A DNA stretch of 40,946 nt from the NCBI GenBank assembly GCA_051747065.1, contig JBNJFT010000001.1:15376-56321 (forward strand), in the 5' to 3' direction. Below, one piece after another: positions 113 to 40,946 of this stretch (positions are counted from its first letter, which is position 1; every line of letters begins with the position of its first letter). The translations under genes were made by a program, and so were the position numbers. The notes below the pieces were generated by a model that saw only the letters and a program-made list of their open reading frames with translations, had not been told where the DNA came from and searched no databases. Source of the stretch: Bacteroidota bacterium. Its GTDB lineage: Bacteria > Bacteroidota > Bacteroidia > Bacteroidales > UBA12077.

Positions 113-330
113 AATTAGGTAGATTCAGAAGTAGAGGCAAATAATAAAATAACCAGCAATTAGCTAATGAGTAAGCAGTAAGCACTCTGCAGCAGGCAGT
201 GAACATGCTGCATGTAGTGGATAAACAAATTGTTCTCCATAATTTGCAGTAGAATAATCTAAAGTTTTGTGAGTTCTTTTCATATGTCGATGATTCAGCA
301 GCCTCGTTTTTTGATAATTTTGGTTAATTT
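113..330 (-). repeat. Modular intergenic repeat, copy A (X module plus a second head motif), reverse orientation
   Basis: 170-330 is the reverse complement of 40668-40828, equal in length (161 bp) and about 85 percent identical by eye. 113-134 is the reverse complement of the 40583-40604 head motif with 1 mismatch. Confidence 0.75.
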
Positions 331-404
331 CAATGCCGAAAATTATTACCCGGTCACGTAACACGCTAATAATTACAGCTTTAAGTTTCTATGAATGAAT
401 GCGC

Positions 405-725
405 CTAAATTAATCCCAGGTCCAGTTTGGCTTCTTCAGACATCATCTCCTTGTCCCATGGCGGATCGAATACGAGTTTAACGTCAACTTCGTTTACTTC
501 TTCTATTTCTTTAACCTTGTCATGAACTTCCTGCAGAATATCATCTGCAATCGGGCAGTTTGGAGCTGTGAGGGTCATTCGGACCTCTACGTTATTGTCA
601 TCATCTACATCAATGTTGTATATTAATCCCAAATCATAGACATTCACCGGAATTTCCGGGTCATATACTTCTTTGAGCGCCTTTACTATTTCGCCTTCAA
701 CAGCCAGAAAATCTTGTTCACTCAT
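405..725 (-). CDS. sufT: SUF system Fe-S cluster assembly protein, DUF59/SufT family
   Basis: The ORF track gives 405..794. I prefer the ATG at 725 (MSEQDFLAVEGEIV...) because the longer form overlaps the sufE 3' end. DUF59 motifs DPEIPVNVYDLGLIY and TLTAPNCP are present. It is the last gene of the suf operon. Confidence 0.85.
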   Translation of the reverse strand: MSEQDFLAVEGEIVKALKEVYDPEIPVNVYDLGLIYNIDVDDDNNVEVRMTLTAPNCPIADDILQEVHDKVKEIEEVNEVDVKLVFDPPWDKEMMSEEAKLDLGLI

Positions 726-10685: not shown

Positions 10686-11906
10686 TTAAATGATATTTTG
10701 TTTAGGATAACATAAAAAATATTTTTTGACAGTTTTTGATAATATCGATAGATTGAGCATATCAGAAGCCTCTGTTATGTCTGTAACATCCTGATTCTTA
10801 AATAAAATCTGAATGTTTTCATTTTTAGCACTATATGCCTTATTGCTTATATAATTAGAAAAAACTAAATATTCAAGTTGCTCATTATTCATCTCATATT
10901 CTGCCTTTATGCCAGCTTTAATGATTTCAATTTTATCCTCATCAAAAGGAGCATTTTGTAAATCAATTTTAAATAATTTTCTGTTAAGCATATTTTGAGA
11001 CAGAAGGGAAAGCACCCTGTCATCGGATTCTGTCCACAGTTTAAGAGACGCCGCTATGTCATTGTCGTCTAATTTAGAATAATTTATTAGCAAATTTTGC
11101 GAATTGTCATCTTTGTATTTTTCTTTTAAAAAGTATTCCAATTGAGGCGTACAGCCAATGTTTTCTCCTTCGTTGATGAGGTATTTGGCTCTTTTCAAAA
11201 TGGATGAAACAAGCTGATCGGCTGAAATAACTGTTTTGTGGAAGTATACCTGCCAATACATGATCCACCGGGCAATAAGAAATTTTTCGATGGAATGGAC
11301 TCCTTTTGCTTCAATGACCAAATGATCATTGTGGACATTGAGCATTTTTATTATTCGATCAGAGCCTATAACACCTTCTGAAACACCGGTAAAGAAACTG
11401 TCTCTTCTCAGGTAATCCAATCTATCCATGTCTAATTGACTGGAAACCAGCTGATGCAGAAATTTTTTGTAATACTGGTTCTTAAAAATTTTGATAGCAA
11501 GGCTTAATTCCCCGTTAAATTCCTTGTTTAATTCATTCATAAAGAGAAGAGAAAATTCTTCATGTGAAAAGTCGGTTAGCCAAACATCTTCCAGTGTATG
11601 TGAAAGAGGCCCATGCCCGATGTCATGTAAGAGGATTGCGATCTTAGCTGCAAGAGCTTCTTCTTCAGTTATTTCATGCCCTTTTGAACGTATTATGTCA
11701 ATGGAAGATTGCATCAGATGCAGGGAACCCAGGGAATGCTGAAAACGTGTATGCATCGCACCGGGATAAACAAAATGCGTCAGCCCCAATTGTTTTATTC
11801 TTCTTAATCGTTGAAAATATGGGTGTTCAATAAGATCAAAAATGATCTCATCGAATATATTTATAAATCCGTAAACGGGGTCGTTAATAATTTTTTTCTT
11901 GTTCAT
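10686..11906 (-). CDS. HD domain-containing phosphohydrolase (dNTPase-like)
   Basis: HD motifs HSLGSLHL and [12 protein letters not shown]. The ORF track start at 11942 is a TTG lying inside a -7 box; the ATG at 11906 ([14 protein letters not shown]...) is preferred. Confidence 0.85.
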
Positions 11907-11939
11907 TATTGAATTATTTCTTGATTGATGAAAAGGTGT

Positions 11940-11947
11940 CAAAAGTA
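11940..11947 (-). promoter_or_regulatory. Candidate -7 box (TACTTTTG on - strand) for the HD/lpx cluster
   Basis: The reverse complement matches TAnnTTTG, 33 nt upstream of the ATG at 11906. Confidence 0.4.
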
Positions 11948-12063
11948 AAAAAATATTTAACTCGTTGAAAATCTTGTAGCTTAATAATATAGATACACCT
12001 TAAAAAAATGGGTTTTTATACAATAAAATCAGTTGGATACTTGTCATTTAATTAGATAATTGT

Positions 12064-12071
12064 TATTTTTG
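12064..12071 (+). promoter_or_regulatory. Candidate -7 box (TATTTTTG) of the rimP-nusA-infB promoter
   Basis: Exact TAnnTTTG match. A TTG lies about 20 nt upstream (acTTGtc). It is the only + strand promoter-like element in the divergent region. Confidence 0.45.
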
Positions 12072-12103
12072 CACCAGTAAAATATGAGAGGAGGGATTTT
12101 GCT

Positions 12104-12124
12104 GGGGACGTTGTCCCCTTTTTT
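12104..12124 (+). terminator. Intrinsic-terminator-like hairpin in the rimP leader
   Basis: GGGGAC-gtt-GTCCCC (6-bp GC-rich stem, 3-nt loop) followed by six T. It lies 33 nt upstream of the rimP ATG and about 30-45 nt downstream of the -7 box. Confidence 0.6.
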
Positions 12125-12157
12125 CGTATCAAAAACTAAGCCGAACAAGCCGGGAAG

Positions 12158-12616
12158 ATGGTAAAAGACAGAGAGATAGAAAAAGCAGTAAGAGATGTTT
12201 TGGATTCTGATAATTATTTTATCGTTGGAATTCAAAATAAGCAAGATACGATAAAAGTTATTGTTGATGGTTATAAAGGTATTGATCTGGAGAAATGTGG
12301 TGAAATCACAAGAAACCTGAGAAGCTCGTTTGGGGAAAAGGTTGATGATTACAATATAGAAGTGACATCACCCGGATTAACCTCCCCCTTTCAGGTGATA
12401 GAACAATATAAGAAGAATATCGGGCAGAAAGTTGAGACTCTTCTAAAAACGGGCGAAAAGATTACAGGGAAATTACAGGAAGTGAATCCGGACAGTATCC
12501 TTTTAGAGGAGAAAAAAAGAATTAAGACAGATAAGAATAAGAAAAAAACAGTGCGGGAAGAGAAAACAATAAAGTTTGATGAAATAAAATACACAAAATT
12601 GATAATATCATTTTAA
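12158..12616 (+). CDS. rimP: Ribosome maturation factor RimP
   Basis: 152 aa with a RimP-like sequence (EVTSPGL motif), immediately upstream of nusA. Confidence 0.88.
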   Translation: MVKDREIEKAVRDVLDSDNYFIVGIQNKQDTIKVIVDGYKGIDLEKCGEITRNLRSSFGEKVDDYNIEVTSPGLTSPFQVIEQYKKNIGQKVETLLKTGEKITGKLQEVNPDSILLEEKKRIKTDKNKKKTVREEKTIKFDEIKYTKLIISF

Positions 12617-12629
12617 AATTAATAGAGCG

Positions 12630-13865
12630 ATGGATAATTTGAATTTGTTTGATACCTTTTCTGAGTTCAAGGAGCTAAAGAATATAGACAGGCCTTCGAT
12701 GATGAATGTTTTGGAAGATGTTTTCCGCAAATCTCTTGAAAAGATTTTCGGAACCTCGGAAAATTTTGATATCATTATTAATATTGATAAGGGTGATTTT
12801 GAAATATGGAGGAACAGAGAAGTTGTTGAAGATGATGAGCTTGAAGATGACAACCTTCAAATACCTATTTCAAAAGCAAAGAAAATAGACGATGATTACG
12901 AAGTTGGAGAAGAAGTAACAGATGAGGTGAAACTGGAAGATTTTGGAAGAAGAGTGATTCTTTCTCTGAGACAACATCTTACTTCAAAAATTCTTGAGAT
13001 TGAAAGAAACAATGTATTTGAAAAATATAAGCAGCGTATAGGGCAAATTATAAGTGGTGAGGTTTACCAGGTTTGGAAACGCGAGCTCATGGTATTGGAT
13101 GATGAAGGAAACGAACTTATCATGCCACGCGATGAACAAATTCCTTCTGATCATTTCCGCAAGGGTGATCTTTTAAGAGCCGTTGTGGTAAGGGCTGAAA
13201 TGAGGAATAATACACCATTGATTATAATTTCACGGACTTCACCCGTATTTTTAGAGCGGTTATTTGAGTTTGAAGTTCCCGAGATATATGACGGCCTTAT
13301 CACCATAAAAAAAGTTGTGCGGGCTCCCGGGGAAAAAGCCAAAGTTGCAGTAGAATCTTATGACGACAGAATTGATCCGGTTGGATCGTGCGTTGGAATG
13401 AAAGGTTCAAGAATTCACGGTATTGTTCGCGAATTAAGAAATGAAAATATAGATGTAATTAACTATACAAATAACACACAACTATTTATTCAAAGAGCCC
13501 TGAGTCCTGCTAAAATCAACTCCATTAAGATTGATGACGAGAATAAAACAGCAGAGGTTTATCTTGATCCCGAGGAAGTCTCTCTGGCAATTGGAAAAGG
13601 CGGACTCAATATTAAACTGGCAAGTCAGCTGACAGGCTATGATTTAGATGTTTACAGAGAAGCGGAAGAAGATGAAGAGGACGTAAATATTGATGAATTT
13701 TCAGATGAAATCGATCAGTGGGTTATTGACACACTGAAATCTGTCGGTCTTGACACAGCAAAGAGTGTTTTGGAGCTTAGCAGGGAAGAACTCGAGCGGC
13801 GAACTGATTTAGAAGAAGAAACTATTGATGATATTACTCAAATTTTTAAATCAGAATTTGAATAA
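12630..13865 (+). CDS. nusA: Transcription termination/antitermination factor NusA
   Basis: S1 and KH domain motifs (CVGMKGSRI, AIGKGGLNIKLA). 411 aa, in rimP-nusA-infB synteny. Confidence 0.95.
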   Translation: MDNLNLFDTFSEFKELKNIDRPSMMNVLEDVFRKSLEKIFGTSENFDIIINIDKGDFEIWRNREVVEDDELEDDNLQIPISKAKKIDDDYEVGEEVTDEVKLEDFGRRVILSLRQHLTSKILEIERNNVFEKYKQRIGQIISGEVYQVWKRELMVLDDEGNELIMPRDEQIPSDHFRKGDLLRAVVVRAEMRNNTPLIIISRTSPVFLERLFEFEVPEIYDGLITIKKVVRAPGEKAKVAVESYDDRIDPVGSCVGMKGSRIHGIVRELRNENIDVINYTNNTQLFIQRALSPAKINSIKIDDENKTAEVYLDPEEVSLAIGKGGLNIKLASQLTGYDLDVYREAEEDEEDVNIDEFSDEIDQWVIDTLKSVGLDTAKSVLELSREELERRTDLEEETIDDITQIFKSEFE

Positions 13866-13927: not shown

Positions 13928-16900
13928 ATGGCAAAGGACAAAAAAATAACGAGATTGAGCAAGGTGGCAAGAGAATTCAATGTGGGGATTTCAACAATTG
14001 TGGATTTTCTTCATAAAAAGGGATATGGTATCGATTCTAACCCTAATGCAAAAGTATCCCCGGAACAATACAATCTTTTGGTGGATGAATACAGTACAGA
14101 TAGTGATGTTAAGAAACAATCTCAAAAGATAAATCTGGATAAATCCCACGAGAGCAGTAAGCATTCTATTTCTATTAATGATATTGAGCAGGAAACACAA
14201 GAAGATGACACAAACTCTGAAGAATCCGGAGACGATGAGGAAATTTTCATTAAAGATGTGAGTGGAAAAGAACAAAAAAAATCTGCTCAAAAACCCAAAG
14301 AAAAAGAGACCAGTAAAGAAGAATCAGAAAAAGAGAAAGCCGCTAAGGAAGAAAAAGCAGAAAAGGCCAGGAAAGAGAAAGAAAAACAGGAAAAAGAACC
14401 TAAGGTAGTAGGCAAAATTGATTTAGATTCAGTTACCAAAAAACAAAAAGCAGAAAAAGAAGAGGATAAAAGCCAGAAAAAACAACAAGAGACCCCCGAG
14501 AAAACGGAGAAAAAAGAAAAATCCAAACAACCTTCAACAAAAGAAACAGAAAAGAAAACCTCTAAGAAAGAGGAAACGAAAGCTCCCAAGAAATCTGAAA
14601 CTGTAAAGAAAGAAGAGGAAAAGGATAAGAAAGCCAAAAAACAGGCGAAAACAGAAAAACAAGAAACGGAAGAAGCCAAAAAAGAGGAAAAAACAGACGA
14701 GAAAGTGAAAAAAACAGAAAAACCCGCTGAAGAAACACCGGAGAATGTTGCTGTTGGTCAGAAAAATACTATAGATATCAAGGACGAAGAGGAAAAAGAA
14801 CAGATTAAGGTTGTCGGAAAAATAGATCTGGATTCACTAAATCAAAAAACAAGGCCGGATAGAAAGACGCGTAAAGAAAAAGAGGCAGAACGTACGAAAA
14901 AAGAGGGTACAAAAAAAGAGGGAGCCAAAAAAGAAAGTGCGAAGAAGGAAGAAGAGAAATCTACGGATGAAAGTACAAAACCGAAAAGAAAACGAAGAAA
15001 GCGTATTAATAAAGATAAAGAAAAAGTTCAGGTAGATAACAAGACGAAACAACAAGAAGGAACAAAGGAAAAGAAAGAGCCACCAAAAAAGAAAAAGTCT
15101 AAGAAAAAACGACCTGTTCGAAATGAAGTAGACGAGGAAGATGTTCAGAAGCAGGTAAAAGAAACCCTTTCAAGGCTTACTAGTAAAGGAAAGTCAAAAG
15201 GGTCAAAATACAGAAGAGAAAAACGACAGGCTATAAATGAAAAACAGCAGGAAGAAGCAGCCAAGCAGGAGGAGGAAAAGAATGTATTGAAGGTAACGGA
15301 GTTTGTTTCCGTAAATGAATTGGCTAGTATGATGGAGGTTCCTGTCAACGATGTAATTCAAACCTGTATGAATCTCGGGTTGCTCGTTTCAATGAACCAG
15401 CGCCTGGATGCAGAAACAATGGCATTGGTTGCTGATGAGTACAATTATAAAGTGGAATTTGTAAGTGTCGAAGTACAAGAGGCAATTAAAGATGAAGAAG
15501 ACAGAGAAGAGGATTTAGAACCTCGTGATCCAATTGTTACTGTCATGGGGCACGTTGACCATGGCAAAACTTCTTTACTTGACCACATTCGTAAAGCAAA
15601 CGTAATTGCCGGCGAGGCCGGAGGTATTACCCAGCATATCGGCGCTTATCGCGTTGAAGTCACTGATGAAAAAAGAATAACATTTTTAGACACTCCCGGT
15701 CACGAAGCTTTTACGGCAATGCGTGCGAGGGGTGCACAAATTACTGATGTGGCAATTATTGTTGTTGCCGCAGATGATAATGTTATGCCCCAAACTATTG
15801 AGGCAATCAATCATGCATCTGCAGCCGGAGTGCCTATAGTCTTCGCTATCAACAAGGTAGATAAGCCCGGCGCCAGTCCGGAACGAATTAAGGAAGAGCT
15901 GGCGAATATGAATTACCTTGTAGAAGAATGGGGCGGAAAATATCAATCACAGGATATTTCTGCCAAGAAGGGTGAAAACATTGAGGCTTTGCTGGAGAAA
16001 GTTCTGCTTGAGTCTGAGCTGCTTGACCTTAAAGCGAACCCGAATAAAAATGCCATTGGCACCGTACTTGAATCATGGCTTGACAAGGGACGAGGGTATG
16101 TTTCAAATATTCTTGTACAAGCCGGAAAGATGATAATTTCAGATGTTATATTAGCAGGAAGCCACATGGGAAGGGCTAAGGCAATGTTCAATGAAAGAGG
16201 TAAAGAAATTAAAGAAGTTGGTCCTTCACAACCTGTACAGCTTCTTGGTTTAAGCGGAGCACCTCAGGCAGGGGATAAATTTAATGTGATGGACACTGAA
16301 AAAGAGGCGAAAGAGATTGCAAACAAGAGATCGCAGCTTGAACGTGAGCAGACAATGAGGACACAGAAACACATTACCCTTGATGAAATTGGACGCCGTA
16401 TTGCAATTGGCAACTTTAAAGAGGTAAATCTCGTTGTTAAAGGTGATGTTGACGGTTCTGTCGAAGCACTTTCAGATGCATTTGCAAAACTAAGTACTGA
16501 AGAAATTCAAATTAACATTATACACAAAGGCGTAGGACAAATTACGGAATCTGACATCTTATTAGCTGCTGCATCAAATGCTGTAGTTATTGGTTTCCAG
16601 GTTCGGCCTTCAGCTTCTGCACGAAAGCTTGCTGCTAAAGAACAAATTGATATTCGTTTATACTCCATTATTTATGACGCCATCAATAATATGAAAGATG
16701 CTCTTGAGGGTATGCTTGAGCCGGAGATTAAAGAGGAGATAACCGGAAATGCAGAAGTGAAAGATATCTTTAAAATTAAAAAGGTTGGAACTATTGCCGG
16801 ATGTATTGTCAAAGATGGCAAGCTGGAACGAGACAGTAAAGTCCGGGTAATTCGTGATGGTATTGTAATTCACTCAGGTGAACTCGAAAGCTTGAAACGC

Positions 16901-17050
16901 TTTAAGCAAGATGCCAAAGTGGTTACCTCAGGATATGAATGTGGTCTGAATGTTAAGAACTACAACGATATTGAAGTTGGCGATGTGATTGAAGGTTATA
17001 AAGAAGTAGAAGTCAAGAAGAGTTTAGAGGATTCGAAGAAGAAAAAATAA
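13928..17050 (+). CDS. infB: Translation initiation factor IF-2
   Basis: GTPase motifs [17 protein letters not shown] and NKVDK. 1040 aa with a roughly 390-aa Lys/Glu-rich N-terminal region. Confidence 0.96.
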
Positions 17051-17071
17051 TTGCTTTCCTTTATAAGAACT

Positions 17072-17099
17072 CAGAATACAGAATACAGAATACAGAATT
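17072..17099 (+). repeat. Tandem heptamer array (CAGAATA x3 + CAGAATT)
   Basis: Four head-to-tail 7-mers read directly from the sequence. They form the left edge of repeat copy B. Confidence 0.9.
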
Positions 17100-17296
17100 C
17101 CTACCTGCCGCCTGCCTCCCGGTAGGCAGGGCAGGCAGGCATAATGCGGTAATATCTAACTGTCAATTAAATGCAAAGATCATTGTATCTGATATCTTAA
17201 TATGTTAATTAAAAGAATGAGCGTTTTATAAAATTCTATTTAAAATTTGACCCCGCTTTTTAATCATTTTTGCATTTTTCGGGGTTTCGCCTTGCT

Positions 17297-17304
17297 TAAC
17301 TTTG
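17297..17304 (+). promoter_or_regulatory. Conserved -7-like box TAACTTTG inside repeat copy B
   Basis: Matches TAnnTTTG and is conserved in position in copies C and D. It sits 8 nt after the invariant 24-mer. Confidence 0.4.
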
Positions 17305-17388
17305 CCATTAACCTCCTGTTTTTCGTAACATTGCTTACTTGTGAATGTGACTGTTGATTATCAGAATATGACTGCAGAAAGTTACATG

Positions 17389-20205
17389 CTATTCATTGTT
17401 ACTTTGCTCTTCCAGTTTTTCTAAAACATCCTTTAATTCTTTCATTGATTGTGCTGCCTCATCAAATTTTTGTTCGCCCGTGAATCGCAGATAATTCTGT
17501 AATGCCTGACTCGCATTCTTTATCAGCATGCTTTGATCTTTGGAGATTCCTTCGGCTTCTTTAGAGGGGACCTTTTTTACGGGTTCGCCGTAAATTCCTT
17601 TTAATGCTTCATCAAAACTTTCTGCATAGCTCAAATTGTCATTGTGCATAACTGCTACCAGCCTTAACTCAGGATAAGCAGCTGTTTCTGACTGAAGATA
17701 AATAGGTTCAACATAGATCATAGTTTCTCCAACCGGAATAGCCAATACATTACCCCTAATTACGCTCGAACCTCTCTGATCCCAAAGAGATAATTGTCCT
17801 GAAAGGTAGGATTCCTGATCGATTTTTGTCTCTACTTGTTGAGGGCCAAGTATTCGTTTGTCTTTAGGAAATTTATACGCTACAAACTTTCCATAATTTT
17901 CTCCATCGCTCATGCCTGCGATCCAGCCGATCATCACCTGTCGGTTTTTCGGGGTGAAGGGTTGCATTAATACAAATTCCACTTCATCTTCTCCCGGACG
18001 TTCCCACATGATATAATATGGATCTACTGGTTTGATGTTGTCGTAATATTTTTCTGTTGCGCGAATCCAAATATCCTCCTGGTTGTAAAATACTCTTGGA
18101 TCTTTCATGTGGTATTTTGCATAAACCTGGCCCTGAACCGATAATTTATCTATAGGATATCTGACATGTTTCCTCAGGTCCTCAGGCATTTCCTCCTTTT
18201 CATTAAACATTTTCGGGAAAACATTTTTCCATACGTTAATTACAGGGTCGTCCTCGTCGTAAACATAAAGCTCGGGTTTGCCGTTAAATGCATCGATAAC
18301 GACCTTTACCGGGTTGCGCAGATAATTTATCCCGTTTAACTTAGGAGCTACGTTTGAAATAAGCTCTCTTTCTGTTTCTCCCCGGCTATATTCAATGACT
18401 TCCCTGGAAGTAAAAGGTTCGCTGTAAGGAAATGATGAAGAAGTTGTGTAACCATCAAGAATCCAGTATAACTTTCCATCTGAAAGCACAATGTATGGAT
18501 CCTCGTCAAACTCCAGAAATGGAGCTATTTTCTGAACCCTTTGCTTAATATTTCTGTGAAACATTAAGCGGCTGCTGTCTTTTGGATAATTTGAAAAGAA
18601 AAAACGGGTTCCGTCAAATTTCCACCCGTACAGAAATTTTCGCCATAAGTTTGAAATCTGTACACCACCGGTGCCATCATATCGGGTATATATGTTTTCA
18701 TCTCCGCTTGGGTAATCAAATTCTTCTTCTTTGGAGTTTGTAATTACATGAGAGTTCGTAAGTTCCCCATAATATATGCCTGGGGTTTCAACTTCCAGTT
18801 CGTCATATTTGCTTTTTGGGGGAATGTCTTTAATCATCAGGTTTGGAAGCCCATTAGAAGTAAATTCATGGACGTTATTAAGAGTTATTCCATAACCATG
18901 AGTATATTTAAATCTTTTATTTACAAAGGTTTTACTTTGCTCCGGAAGGTTTTTAGTATCCATTTCTCTTGCTGATACCATAACTTGCTGGTAGGTGCTG
19001 TCAATAGTATAGCGGTCAATATCAACATCATTGAATTCATAATACAAGCGAATTTCCTGGAATTGTTTGTAAACTTCATCCAATGCCTGCCAATCCCATA
19101 GCCGGATATTCGAAAAAATGCCAGGATTGGATTCTACTGTTTGTTTGTTAAATGTTTCACTCACAGGATATTCTTTTTCTTCAATATCCTCCAAATCAAA
19201 TGCATAACGCGTTAACTCAATATTGTTTTTAATGAAAGGAGATTCCATCGTAATTTCATTGGGCTCTACTTTTAGCCATTGGAATGTTGCAGGGATAATA
19301 CTAAGAATTAAGAGCCATATAACCAGGATAATTCCAAACAGAGATCCTAAGGCTGCTGGCAATAGGCTCATTACTTGCATCTTAAATCTTTGCAGATATT
19401 TAAGCAGTCTTTGCCTGGTAGCCGGCATTATAAATACTACAGCGATCAGGAAAGTGAGAATTGCAGCAATGGTATAACCCGGCAAACGAATATGTGCATC
19501 CGTCCACCCTGGGCCATTTACAGCGCCCCAGCTTGAAAAAAGCAGGTCATATCTTGCTAAGAATTTATCGAGGGCCAGCGCTATAAAGAATACACTCCCA
19601 CTGTAAACAAGAGACCGGCCTTCTCTGACCCCATAGGTTAGATCATTTGAAGGAGCATTGGTTCCTGTTTCTTTGGCAAATATACCGAGAAGAACAGCCG
19701 CCATAGAAATAATGGAAGTAACAATGAAAAAGTTGACAATTTGATGGTAGAAAGGCAACTTGAACATATACAAGGAGGCGTCCTGGTTAAGAATTGGCTC
19801 CTGAATTCCTGCATTCACAGAGTTAAAGAACTTCAGAACCACTTCCCAGTCAGAAAACCCCCATGAAATACCATAAATAAGCGCAATAATCAATGCTAAA
19901 TATTTATGGAAAATACTTTCTTTAGCAATAGAGCGGGTCATCAAATGCACAAGTAAAACGCCTAATCCGCCGCCAATGATCACCATGGAAGCTTTTGTAA
20001 TGATCTCTATCCAAAAGCGGTCGCCAAATCCAACATTATCGTACCATAACTTCTCACCCCAGAATGACATAAACAAAAAGAAAAGGGCAGTCAAGGCGAT
20101 CACAACTCCTCCGGTAATGATTTTTCCTTTTGTTTTCTTTTGGATTCCGAGGTACATAAAACGAATGCCTACAAAAAGCAGAGCAATAATAATTACAGTA
20201 TACAT
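17389..20205 (-). CDS. UPF0182 family membrane protein
   Basis: 938 aa with an N-terminal multi-pass membrane region and a large soluble C-terminal region. The family call comes from overall architecture and remembered sequence character only. Confidence 0.7.
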   Translation of the reverse strand: MYTVIIIALLFVGIRFMYLGIQKKTKGKIITGGVVIALTALFFLFMSFWGEKLWYDNVGFGDRFWIEIITKASMVIIGGGLGVLLVHLMTRSIAKESIFHKYLALIIALIYGISWGFSDWEVVLKFFNSVNAGIQEPILNQDASLYMFKLPFYHQIVNFFIVTSIISMAAVLLGIFAKETGTNAPSNDLTYGVREGRSLVYSGSVFFIALALDKFLARYDLLFSSWGAVNGPGWTDAHIRLPGYTIAAILTFLIAVVFIMPATRQRLLKYLQRFKMQVMSLLPAALGSLFGIILVIWLLILSIIPATFQWLKVEPNEITMESPFIKNNIELTRYAFDLEDIEEKEYPVSETFNKQTVESNPGIFSNIRLWDWQALDEVYKQFQEIRLYYEFNDVDIDRYTIDSTYQQVMVSAREMDTKNLPEQSKTFVNKRFKYTHGYGITLNNVHEFTSNGLPNLMIKDIPPKSKYDELEVETPGIYYGELTNSHVITNSKEEEFDYPSGDENIYTRYDGTGGVQISNLWRKFLYGWKFDGTRFFFSNYPKDSSRLMFHRNIKQRVQKIAPFLEFDEDPYIVLSDGKLYWILDGYTTSSSFPYSEPFTSREVIEYSRGETERELISNVAPKLNGINYLRNPVKVVIDAFNGKPELYVYDEDDPVINVWKNVFPKMFNEKEEMPEDLRKHVRYPIDKLSVQGQVYAKYHMKDPRVFYNQEDIWIRATEKYYDNIKPVDPYYIMWERPGEDEVEFVLMQPFTPKNRQVMIGWIAGMSDGENYGKFVAYKFPKDKRILGPQQVETKIDQESYLSGQLSLWDQRGSSVIRGNVLAIPVGETMIYVEPIYLQSETAAYPELRLVAVMHNDNLSYAESFDEALKGIYGEPVKKVPSKEAEGISKDQSMLIKNASQALQNYLRFTGEQKFDEAAQSMKELKDVLEKLEEQSNNE

Positions 20206-20428
20206 GGCTTATAATTTAAATTTACCTTAAGATATAAAATAAAATGGTTTCATCACAATAATTTCATAAATAACAACTTCGGGATTTCTTCTTTATCTTT
20301 ATCAACACTATTCTTTTCCCGGATATTCTAATATTGTAAGAATGGTTTTTCTATTGCACCTAAGTTGAGCGGTTTGAACGAAGTGAAAAAGCGCTTTACT
20401 TAGGTATAACCCCGACTTAGAAATTATA

Positions 20429-20458
20429 GGTTTTTACCGAATAGGTGAGGTAAAAACC
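20429..20458. other. Perfect 10-bp stem hairpin (GGTTTTTACC / GGTAAAAACC)
   Basis: Exact inverted repeat with a 10-nt loop. The strand of function is unresolved. It may be the terminator of the 20593..21588 gene or part of a structured RNA. Confidence 0.5.
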
Positions 20459-20592
20459 ATACAATTTCTTTGTCGTGAGTGAGAATCGCTCAATTTGGGT
20501 TGCATTTATGTACACACATCCATCAACGTCCAGACTGCTGATTTTCAGCGCATAACCAGTAAAAACAAACAGATTCGAACCCGGAAAGAATT

Positions 20593-23901: not shown

Positions 23902-24117
23902 GGCGGCAGCTTTTGAATAGAGAATGCAGAATACAGACACCTACCTGCCGCCTGGCTGCAGGCAGAATACGATAAAACTAACTATCAACGAAATACAAAA
24001 AAATTGTATCTGATGTTTTAATGTGTTAATTGAAAGAATGAGCGTTTTATAAAATTCTATTTACAATTTGACCCTGCTTTTTTATCATTTTTGCATTTTT
24101 CGGGGTTTCACTTTACT

Positions 24118-24125
24118 TAATTTTG
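24118..24125 (+). promoter_or_regulatory. Conserved -7-like box TAATTTTG inside repeat copy C
   Basis: Matches TAnnTTTG with the same spacing from the invariant 24-mer as in copies B and D. Confidence 0.4.
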
Positions 24126-24306
24126 TTTTTAACTTCTTGTATTCCAAAACATTACTTGCTCATGAAAGTGCCTATTTAGGAAAAGGCGCGTTATTCAACG
24201 CCGGCCACTTTCTCCACTTAGTTTACTCAATCAACTCAGTCAACTCAATTTACTTTAATTCTCTCATTGCAAGAAATGAAAAGAATTCTATATCCTATTA
24301 GGTTCC

Positions 24307-24334
24307 GAATTCTGAATTCTGAATTCTGCATTCT
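24307..24334 (-). repeat. Tandem heptamer array (GAATTCT x3 + GCATTCT; reverse complement of AGAATTC/AGAATGC)
   Basis: Four head-to-tail 7-mers, inverted relative to the CAGAAT motif at the left end of copy C. Confidence 0.85.
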
Positions 24335-24397
24335 GTCTTCTAATTTACCTGTTTGACGTTTTTTTCCGAAATTTTCTAAAGAAATCTTACAACTGAC

Positions 24398-25351: not shown

Positions 25352-25440
25352 GGAGAAGTGGCAGAGTGGCCGAATGCGGCGGTCTCGAAAACCGTTGTCC
25401 GGCTATCGCCGGACCGGGGGTTCGAATCCCCCCTTCTCCG
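25352..25440 (+). tRNA. tRNA-Ser (anticodon CGA)
   Basis: The cloverleaf folds by hand. The acceptor is GGAGAAG/CTTCTCC, the anticodon loop is CTCGAAA, the long variable arm is TCCGG..CCGGA, and the T-arm is GGGGG-TTCGAAT-CCCCC. No CCA is encoded. Confidence 0.93.
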
Positions 25441-25457
25441 CTTTTTAGATGAAATAC

Positions 25458-38952: not shown

Positions 38953-40357
38953 CGTTTGGACAAATATTGACTGGTTTACTGTTATTCTTTATGTTATTCT
39001 TGTGTTCATAGGGTGGTTGACAATTTATTCTGCTCTCTATAATGAAGAGCATAAGAGTGTTTTTGATCTTTCTCAACGGTATGGCAAACAATTTTTATGG
39101 ATATCTGCAGCATTTTTGCTCGCTATCCTTATTATGGTTATAGATAGTAATTTCTTTTCATTTTTTGCTTATGGCTTTTATGTGCTTGTAATCATCTTAT
39201 TGATAGCCGTGCTTTTTTTCGGAGAAGAAACTCAAGGTTCAAAAGCCTGGTTGAGAATTGGCAATGTGAAGTTCCAGCCTGCTGAATTTGCCAAAGTTGC
39301 TACTGCCTTAACCATTGCAAAGTATCTAAGTGGCTTTAACGTGAAATTAAATGTGCTAAAAACTTACTTTAGAGTAGCCATGCTCATCTTACTTCCTATG
39401 GCTTTGGTCTTTATTCATGATGCAGGTACGGCACTTGTATTTGTAGCCTTTCTTTTGCCACTATACAGAGAAGGTTTATCATCTGCTGTTTTATTATTAG
39501 GTGTATATTTTATTATCCTTTTTATTCTCTCTTTCCTGGTTGAAAAGATTATACTAACCCTGGGAGCTATTTTTATTGTTCATCTAATCTTCTTGTTCAT
39601 TCAACGAAATATAAAACAAACCCTGGTTTCTCTGCTCATTTTTATCGGAATATCTGGTCTTTTCCTTGGAATTAATCAATTATCCGGCTTCAGCATTGAC
39701 TATATATATATAATACTGGGAGGTTTTATCGGTTCGAGTATATTTTACCTCATTCTTTCATATTATCATAAAATTTCTAAAGTCCCATTATATATATTGT
39801 TTGTTTTTGCTTCTATTACATTTACGTATTCAATAGATTTTGCTTTTGACAGCTTCTTGCAACCTCATCAGCAAAGGCGGATAGTCCAAATAATGGGATT
39901 AGAAGACAGTCCGCAAGGTGCCGGTTACAATGTTAATCAATCAGTAATTGCTATCGGGTCGGGAGGTTTTTCCGGGAAAGGCTATTTGAAGGGGACTCAG
40001 ACCAAATATGATTTTGTACCTGAACAGAGTACAGATTTTATTTTCAGCACAATAGGGGAAGAATTTGGTTTTGTCGGGTCGTCTATTTTGATTATATTAT
40101 TTGTCACCCTGTTATTACGGCTGATATTTCTTGCAGAAAGACAGCGTTCTTTTTTTAGCCGGATTTATGGATATGGTGTAATTTCCGTTTTTTTATTCCA
40201 TTTTATAATCAATATCGGCATGACAATAGGTTTGGCACCTGTAATTGGCATTCCTTTACCTTTTATCAGCTATGGTGGCTCATCCCTTTGGGCTTTTACC
40301 GTAATGCTTTTTATTTTTATCCGGTTAGATGTGAGTCGGTTAAAAGTGTTAAGATAG
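38936..40357 (+). CDS. rodA: Rod shape-determining SEDS glycosyltransferase RodA
   Basis: SEDS family polytopic protein (PEQSTDFIFS, ISYGGSS). It overlaps the mrdA stop by 17 nt. Confidence 0.92.
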   Translation: MRRKINVWTNIDWFTVILYVILVFIGWLTIYSALYNEEHKSVFDLSQRYGKQFLWISAAFLLAILIMVIDSNFFSFFAYGFYVLVIILLIAVLFFGEETQGSKAWLRIGNVKFQPAEFAKVATALTIAKYLSGFNVKLNVLKTYFRVAMLILLPMALVFIHDAGTALVFVAFLLPLYREGLSSAVLLLGVYFIILFILSFLVEKIILTLGAIFIVHLIFLFIQRNIKQTLVSLLIFIGISGLFLGINQLSGFSIDYIYIILGGFIGSSIFYLILSYYHKISKVPLYILFVFASITFTYSIDFAFDSFLQPHQQRRIVQIMGLEDSPQGAGYNVNQSVIAIGSGGFSGKGYLKGTQTKYDFVPEQSTDFIFSTIGEEFGFVGSSILIILFVTLLLRLIFLAERQRSFFSRIYGYGVISVFLFHFIINIGMTIGLAPVIGIPLPFISYGGSSLWAFTVMLFIFIRLDVSRLKVLR

Positions 40358-40363
40358 GCAGTT

Positions 40364-40593
40364 TCAGAAGTATCGGCTATATTTCTATTTCTGAGGTAAC
40401 ACAGCTTTTTTCTATTTTTGATTGTTTTCGAGGTCGTAAAAGTTAAATAGATTTTTCATATGCAGGTATTTTATATTATCTCATTGCTAGCCAAGAAATG
40501 AATTCTATAGCCTTTAACTGTTACCAAATCGCTACTAACTACTTTTCTTTCAGCTAAAAAAATGTGTTTCTAAGATTATCTTCTACTTCTGAA
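40364..40593 (+). repeat. Short repeat unit D1 bounded by inverted TTCAGAAGTA / TACTTCTGAA
   Basis: 10-bp perfect inverted repeat (40364-40373 versus 40584-40593). The internal 40480-40520 resembles the tail of copy C (24263-24300). Confidence 0.5.
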
Positions 40594-40946
40594 TCTTCCT
40601 AATTATCAAAGGAATACAAAAATATTGTGTCTGGTATTTTAATGTGTTAATAAAAAGAATCAGCACTAAATTAACAAATATTATTAAAAAACGAGGTTAC
40701 GGAATTATTTACATACAAAAGGAACTCACAAAACTTTAGGTTATTCTAATGCGGATTATGGAGAGCAATTTGTTTATCCATTATGTGCTGCATATTCACT
40801 GCCTACTGCAAAGTGCTTACTGCTTACTTGCTACCCTGCTTTTTACTCATTTTTGCATTTTTCGGGGTTTCGATTTTCTTAATTTTGTCGTAAATTTCTT
40901 GCAATTCAAGATATTGTCTGCTTCTAAAGACACCTATTTTTCACTT
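40583..40946 (+). repeat. Modular intergenic repeat, copy D (head variant + module 1 + 161-bp X module + core), truncated by the window end
   Basis: Module 1 (40613-40664) and the core (40842-40897) align to copies B and C. 40668-40828 aligns to the reverse complement of 170-330. Confidence 0.75.
40890..40897 (+). promoter_or_regulatory. Conserved -7-like box TAATTTTG inside repeat copy D
   Basis: Matches TAnnTTTG with the same spacing from the invariant 24-mer as in copies B and C. Confidence 0.4.

Follow-up and report, generated by a model that had tools for sequence, protein, structure and literature searches.

The non-coding module between infB and the UPF0182 gene, here named copy B, is probably an old copy, now immobile, of a MITE-type non-autonomous DNA transposon. 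Its family has three copies in the 41-kb window (the whole stretch of 40,946 nucleotides that was analysed) and at least eight in a related species. The family is new and of a familiar kind, namely an undescribed repeat together with a wider superfamily which shares its end motif.

Copy B and its relatives in the window

Copy B is located in the gap between two convergent genes. The following features were assigned to this region (window coordinates):

13928-17050, plus strand: infB (Pfam)
17051-17388: gap between the convergent stops of infB and the UPF0182 gene
17072-17098, plus strand: heptamer array CAGAATA, 3.9 copies (TRF); flanking context, outside the mobile unit
17100-17139, plus strand: GC-rich hairpin with the 15-mer CCTACCTGCCGCCTG (17100-17114) and the truncated left terminus TAGGCAG (17123-17129)
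17156-17351, plus strand: body of copy B, homologous to positions 71-264 of the 267-nt full-length unit (alignments)
17204-17288, plus strand: conserved centre of about 85 nt, including the 24-mer at 17265-17288; 95-97% identity to the related-species copies
17249-17286, plus strand: hairpin GACCCCG / CGGGGTT with a 24-nt U-rich loop (-9.8 kcal/mol, z = -1.2)
17336-17353, minus strand: degenerate right terminal inverted repeat CAGTCACATTCACAAGTA with 4 mismatches to TAGGCAGATTCAGAAGTA
17389-20205, minus strand: UPF0182 gene (Pfam)

The initial annotation had described the gap as free of any credible ORF, and the longest ORF inside it comprises indeed only 36 aa. The reported match of 17182-17288 to 24003-24109 was recounted and amounts to exactly 100 of 107 identical positions without gaps. 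Comparison of the copy B gap with the copy A gap by blastn yielded an E value of 2e-61, in agreement with the claim that the match exceeds the expectation for unrelated gaps. Moreover, three occurrences of the 24-mer CATTTTTGCATTTTTCGGGGTTTC were counted in the window, versus 0 expected (100 shuffles). The match between copies A and B is not due to chance. Downstream, the similarity decays to about two thirds as had been stated (47/67 identical positions at 17289-17355).

The 15-mer was found to be identical in both copies, at 17100-17114 and at 23940-23954. The CAGAATN heptamers that had been noticed in front of it are present as the CAGAATA array in copy B and as a degenerate array (23915-23937) in copy A. 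The GC-rich hairpin reported behind the heptamers (CCTGCCT-cccggt-AGGCAGG, 17111-17130) was recovered as part of a longer hairpin with a folding energy of -28.7 kcal/mol. The 15-mer is the inverted complement of a AGGCGGCAG-type terminus, and the two sequences pair in copy A. A search with the full-length profile (nhmmer) detected copy B with an E value of 6.5e-34. Its left inverted repeat is cut down to TAGGCAG and provides no usable left end. Copy B, at approximately 17123-17353, is best explained as a decayed member of a MITE-like family.

Besides copy A in the mgtE gap, the window contains a third relative of the module behind rodA (copy C, core at 40599-40937) and an element D behind a sufT-like gene (116-407), both of which had been overlooked initially:

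116-407, minus strand: element D, a complete 290-bp sister element of type 2 with module 2 and TA on both flanks
23912-23937, plus strand: mgtE gap, left arm of the native heptamer hairpin (inverted repeat)
23958-24175, plus strand: body of copy A (nhmmer E = 2.3e-40); the right inverted repeat ends at GCCTA (24170-24174)
24318-24343, plus strand: right arm of the native heptamer hairpin; the repeat modules inserted between the two arms, copy A among them, span approximately 370 bp
40355-40936, plus strand: copy C, a 582-bp composite with both family termini
40355-40372: left inverted repeat of copy C
40584-40601: nested type-2 end in copy C
40599-40665: core piece of copy C
40668-40828, plus strand: module 2 of copy C, 161 nt
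40833-40937: right part of the core of copy C

Copies A and B share the reduction of the left end to TAGGCAG and a deletion of about 50-60 nt behind the left terminus. They represent one subfamily, and both adjoin the same inverted terminus remnant, i.e. the 15-mer. Copy C and element D are bounded by the end motif TAGGNNNATTCAGAAGTA, and module 2 of copy C recurs inverted at 170-330 inside element D with 85% identity. Module 2 includes an ORF of about 39 aa (MKRTHKTLDYSTANYGEQFVYPLH...; 170-330 on the minus strand and 40668-40828 on the plus strand), which is also present in four contigs of relatives (L001, L006, L094 and L100). Some of the changes seen in relatives of this ORF (..SNANSLxLFxxPLH..) look synonymous. 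However, copy C has lost the start, and an internal stop interrupts the frame in L094. The ORF may be a coding relic or a product of chance.

The intact unit and its insertion sites

An exact search of JGI metagenomes with the 24-mer retrieved 8 contigs (L001-L008) from a related species. The same search gave 0 matches in 185,579 GTDB species-representative genomes, and two exact patterns gave 0 matches in viral contigs. No family members were present at 80 infB loci of other Bacteroidota, and blastn in distant mode revealed no match in plasmids and phages. The 8 copies of the related species reside at unrelated loci, 3' of pyrG, ribBA, fmt, lon and other genes. Consequently, the module belongs to a dispersed repeat family, as had been claimed, and a restriction of the copies to the window, which had been named as a weakening result, is excluded.

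Three of these copies (L003, L004 and L007) are full-length with 266-268 bp and are 93-95% identical to one another. They share the same exact end points at unlinked loci behind different genes. The intact unit of about 267 bp can be written as (TA)GGCAGATTCAGAAGTA ... TACTTGTGAATACGCC(TA) and carries 18-nt imperfect terminal inverted repeats, of which TAGGCAGATTCAGAAGTA and TAGGCGTATTCACAAGTA match at 15/18 positions. Judging from its sequence, the unit has defined inverted ends and is thus MITE-like. The small size with reproducible ends, the inverted repeats, the lack of coding capacity and the dispersed presence/absence are all features of MITEs. The sites at which modules are joined in L001, L002, L005 and copy C speak against this model, since they are replacements and not simple insertions. 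In these four sequences the right-hand 100 nt are joined to different left parts, which bears out the modular structure proposed before. Solo ends and same-orientation tandem ends also exist (e.g. L100 8824 and 8900) and suggest that the elements spread by recombination in addition or instead.

Sister elements with long internal 7-nt arrays (GTTTCGN, CCGAATGA, GTTGCAG, TTAGCTN) between same-type ends were observed in two contigs of relatives:

L100 8827-9427: sister element with 7-nt arrays
L106 2721-3337: sister element with 7-nt arrays
L106 11342-12093: sister element with 7-nt arrays

The window stems from an uncultured, Bacteroidales-like lineage with a G+C content of 37%. Its IF-2 is at most 72-74% identical to that of any species representative (best: Prolixibacteraceae, Thermophagus and Tangfeifania), and the MgtE relatives with an identity of about 86% carry the label "Bacteroidales bacterium". 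The corresponding loci of relatives were collected by searching for homologues of MgtE, UPF0182 and the sufT-like protein, followed by contig look-ups. Copy A is absent in three related lineages with mgtE gaps of 70, 137 and 27 bp. The 70-bp gap of L091-L093 (96% MgtE identity) consists of a contiguous hairpin of CAGAATC repeats and their inverse (folding z = -2.5 and -4.8); the gaps of 137 and 27 bp belong to two more distant relatives. Because element-free relatives keep the heptamer hairpin, the heptamers are native to the site and lie outside the unit. Thus, of the modular family with heptamers that had been proposed, the family was confirmed, whereas the heptamers had to be removed from the unit. 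The infB gap of a relative (601 bp) is free of copy B and contains an ordinary GC hairpin, other members of the end-motif superfamily and other heptamers.

A group II intron (RVT_1 ORF, 429 aa, minus strand) was observed in the mgtE-gap heptamer hairpin of two relatives with 96% MgtE identity (L089, approximately 11385-13410, and L090), and is missing in the equally close (96%) L091-L093. Since the intron and copy A occupy the same hairpin, the mgtE-gap hairpin is a common landing site for different mobile elements.

At the sufT/queG site the stop is followed immediately by an insert that differs in each of three lineages, and all of them resume at TAATTT. The sequence is ATT TAA in one relative and ATT TA[G GCGC...ACC TA]A TTT in the window; relatives show ATT TAA or TGA followed by other spacers. 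The pre-insertion sequence for element D was rebuilt from the relatives as ATT-TAA-TTT, which leads exactly to TA[element]TA. The window sequence differs from this rebuilt empty site as predicted by a TA duplication at a TAA stop. Another relative possesses a 600-bp composite where the window and a 96% relative have 7 nt between two convergent stops. The composite insertion changes the end of lpxA and adds 2 codons (L106 2690-2725).

TA adjoins about ten, that is most, of the element ends examined. A TA duplication is suggested by one reconstruction (element D) and these recurrent TA flanks. Together with the first G of the element, the terminal TA forms the TAG stop of rodA (40355-40357) and of the sufT-like gene (405-407). 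The TAG of the end motif also serves as the stop of fmt (L005), of lon (L002) and of UPF0182 in a relative (L100 8824), and probably of a gene in L003 whose ORF runs off the contig. Several further element ends are found at most 15 nt from a stop. A preference for stop codons is suggestive only, the excess being borderline versus a TA-restricted null for about 20 gene-proximal ends. The elements are nearly confined to gene 3' ends, mostly in convergent gaps.

According to the MITE model, a transposase provided in trans would bind the inverted ends of the unit and insert it at TA, and duplication of TA would be the general rule. Insertions would survive almost only at gene 3' ends, either at stop codons, where TA and the first G of the element remake TAG, or in hairpins between convergent genes. 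The copies would then decay and would be invaded by, or recombine with, elements carrying same-type ends, which would give rise to the "modules" noticed initially. Inverted end pairs around a transposase-sized ORF were sought in the approximately 2 Mb of fetched loci, and no transposase with matching ends was detected there.

The conserved centre

Between the window and the related-species copies the centre is 95-97% identical, versus about 68% for the flanks and the rest of the unit. The four-fold degenerate sites of mgtE are 51.5% identical between the same two species. Copies with 68-97% identity compared to 51.5% at neutral sites indicate that the family spread or was exchanged after the two species separated, or has stayed under constraint from then on. 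The related-species copies were retrieved via the 24-mer, so that its invariance among them is given by construction, whereas the contrast between copies A and B is unselected (100/107 in the centre versus 47/67 in the right flank; Fisher p = 6e-6, computed with 44/67). The centre is under stronger constraint than the inverted ends. This is the opposite of the prediction for a plain MITE, and the 85-nt centre is the only out-of-the-ordinary feature of the family. Its near-unchanged sequence between species would suggest some sequence-specific role for the element or the host, and conservation far above the neutral level makes it a candidate exapted regulatory element.

Alternatively, the centre itself could be the selected entity, i.e. 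an RNA or protein-binding module (3'-UTR element, small RNA or atypical terminator hairpin) with the inverted-repeat element as its mere vehicle. The identity values given above favour this explanation. Furthermore, copies A, B and C are sense-oriented behind mgtE, infB and rodA, respectively, but nearly all sites are convergent gaps, in which orientation relative to the neighbouring genes is uninformative. The hairpin of the centre (GACCCYG / CGGGGTT among the copies) keeps its 5' arm in 7/10 copies, and the C-to-T changes in this arm preserve G-U pairs on the plus strand only. However, only the 5' arm varies, and no compensatory changes were found; L001 and L005 lack this arm, and in copy C the centre is split by module 2. 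Folding was no better than that of shuffled sequences (z = 0.06 for the plus strand, -1.4 for the minus strand and 0.24 for the whole unit as DNA) and showed no covariation, so that a structured RNA was rejected. Neither a sigma-70-type promoter nor a canonical terminator rose above shuffles in copy B, no Rfam family matched, and the constancy of the 24-mer among the metagenome copies follows from the mode of retrieval. This explanation seems unlikely. Inspection of copy B by eye also revealed no Bacteroidetes promoter (TTTG/TAnnTTTG) with proper spacing.

The idea of a payload is compatible with the MITE model. In its boldest form, a TA-duplicating superfamily would land preferentially on stops and 3' hairpins and replace the stop by its own TAG, and its 85-nt payload would stay near-invariant through a function at the 3' ends of mRNAs, either as an RNA or as a module bound by protein. 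We regard this combination as improbable. If true, the family should be viewed not as junk DNA but as a mobile 3'-end cassette open to selection.

Alternative origins and relation to known repeats

The origin as a MITE-type transposon was further weighed against a mosaic of the BIME/REP type. In such a mosaic the 18-35-nt "end" motifs would be short repeats at gene 3' ends in both orientations, shuffled with variable linkers by recombination or by a REP-type tyrosine transposase, and no cut-and-paste unit would exist. The four different left parts attached to the right module, the solo and tandem ends (such as those in L100) and the almost exclusive location at gene 3' ends, mostly between convergent genes, fit this proposal well. 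It does not agree with the three 267-bp copies that end identically at unlinked loci. The end motif is also not self-complementary, and the base in front of TAG varies (T, A, C or G), so that a palindrome and a GTAG tag are both missing; a Y1 transposase gene was not seen in the fetched loci. A mosaic is unlikely.

Pseudogene relics of a duplicated protein-coding gene are highly improbable. A minus-strand frame of copy C (..QEIYDKIKKIETPKNAKM..) is open over 38 codons, and part of the variation between copies is located at the third codon positions of a single frame. However, in-frame stops occupy conserved positions in all related-species copies, the most conserved 85 nt contain stops in all six frames, translated fragments gave no Pfam match at threshold, and tblastn found no longer homologue in any fetched locus. 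A coding relic in the form of the minus-strand C-terminus of a gene was rejected for the same conserved stops and the missing homologue. The unit has no coding capacity, with stops in every frame and ORFs that are not conserved. This also holds for a small ORF MAKLSKAKPRKMQK, which is preceded by AGGAGG in copy B only, and for plus-strand hydrophobic ORFs of 36-77 aa, none of which is conserved between copies.

A local segmental duplication or an assembly artefact in this contig can practically be dismissed: copies A and B are indeed only 6.8 kb apart in the same orientation with the same deletion, but other copies occur at unrelated loci of another species, the flanks of A and B are about 30% diverged and hence too different for a collapse, and misassembly is unlikely because L113, which was assembled independently from the same species (98.5% identical), reproduces the mgtE junction as far as the heptamer array. 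The L113 contig ends inside a longer CAGAATA array behind mgtE (L113 1499-1547 versus window 23902-23940), which reflects either a strain difference in heptamer copy number or assembly breakage.

Two mobile or mutagenic systems were also rejected as candidates. Of the 7 differences between copies A and B, 5 are at A, which is not significant evidence for DGR-like A-specific mutagenesis in AT-rich DNA; moreover, the sequence does not code for protein and its vicinity contains no RT gene. An IS200/IS605 or TnpB guide-RNA-like end was discarded because the elements have true inverted ends, flanked by TA.

The module had been left without assignment to any named element, and this held true. Rfam searches of the whole window and of short regions returned no match at the gathering threshold and only chance-level matches under permissive conditions (E <= 10); the best scores had E values of about 0.5 or higher and were below half of the gathering score. 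The end and centre sequences occurred in no paper covered by a literature string search.

Bacterial MITEs with TA target duplication include Correia/NEMIS of Neisseria and RUP of Streptococcus pneumoniae, and the parent insertion sequence of RUP is IS630-Spn1. The family described here resembles them in its 100-300-bp non-coding units with terminal inverted repeats and TA at both ends, in its many dispersed intergenic copies near gene ends, in its presence/absence between relatives and in having no transposase of its own. In contrast to these elements, it is hosted by an uncultured Bacteroidales lineage, its centre is better conserved than its ends, its copies are heavily nested and recombined, its sister elements carry internal heptamer arrays and no parent insertion sequence was identified here.

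BIMEs, the REP mosaics of enterobacteria, include GTAG-tagged REPs (PMC3733652). They share with our family the motif mosaics in both orientations at gene 3' ends, especially between convergent genes, but the end motif reported here forms no palindromic hairpin, lacks the GTAG tag and delimits defined 267-bp units. BrickBuilt, a Porphyromonas gingivalis MITE with a minisatellite (PMC4596501), likewise represents Bacteroidota MITEs with internal tandem repeats. Compared by description, our elements differ from it by a 7-nt unit of variable sequence and by their lineage. Intergenic heptamer direct repeats (TAACTGA and others) were reported for Beggiatoaceae, Cyanobacteria and some Bacteroidetes (PMC4679880). 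Those are also intergenic tandem 7-nt arrays whose copy number varies between close relatives. However, most of them directly precede start codons, and a role in translation has been proposed for them, whereas the arrays described here lie behind stops, form hairpins with inverted arrays and are linked to inverted-end elements.

Few MITEs are documented in the phylum, and the family adds to them. The elements explain hypervariable 3' intergenic gaps in this lineage as well as assembly breaks in metagenomes at such gaps. Insertions at stop codons alter the stop and sometimes the C-terminus of housekeeping genes, as observed for lpxA. For annotation, the elements are otherwise ordinary mobile-DNA debris.

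Some further features of the window were recorded. The gap between the stop of an LPG_synthase_TM-family gene and the UPF0182 start (20330-20560, minus strand) contains nested long hairpins (-66 kcal/mol, z = -5.7 versus shuffles) which have no Rfam match and do not belong to the repeat family. The N-terminal part of IF-2 (14300-15270) comprises a long Lys/Glu-rich low-complexity region, resulting in many imperfect direct repeats at the DNA level. Finally, a tRNA-Ser gene (anticodon CGA) is located on the plus strand at 25352-25441 between two minus-strand genes.
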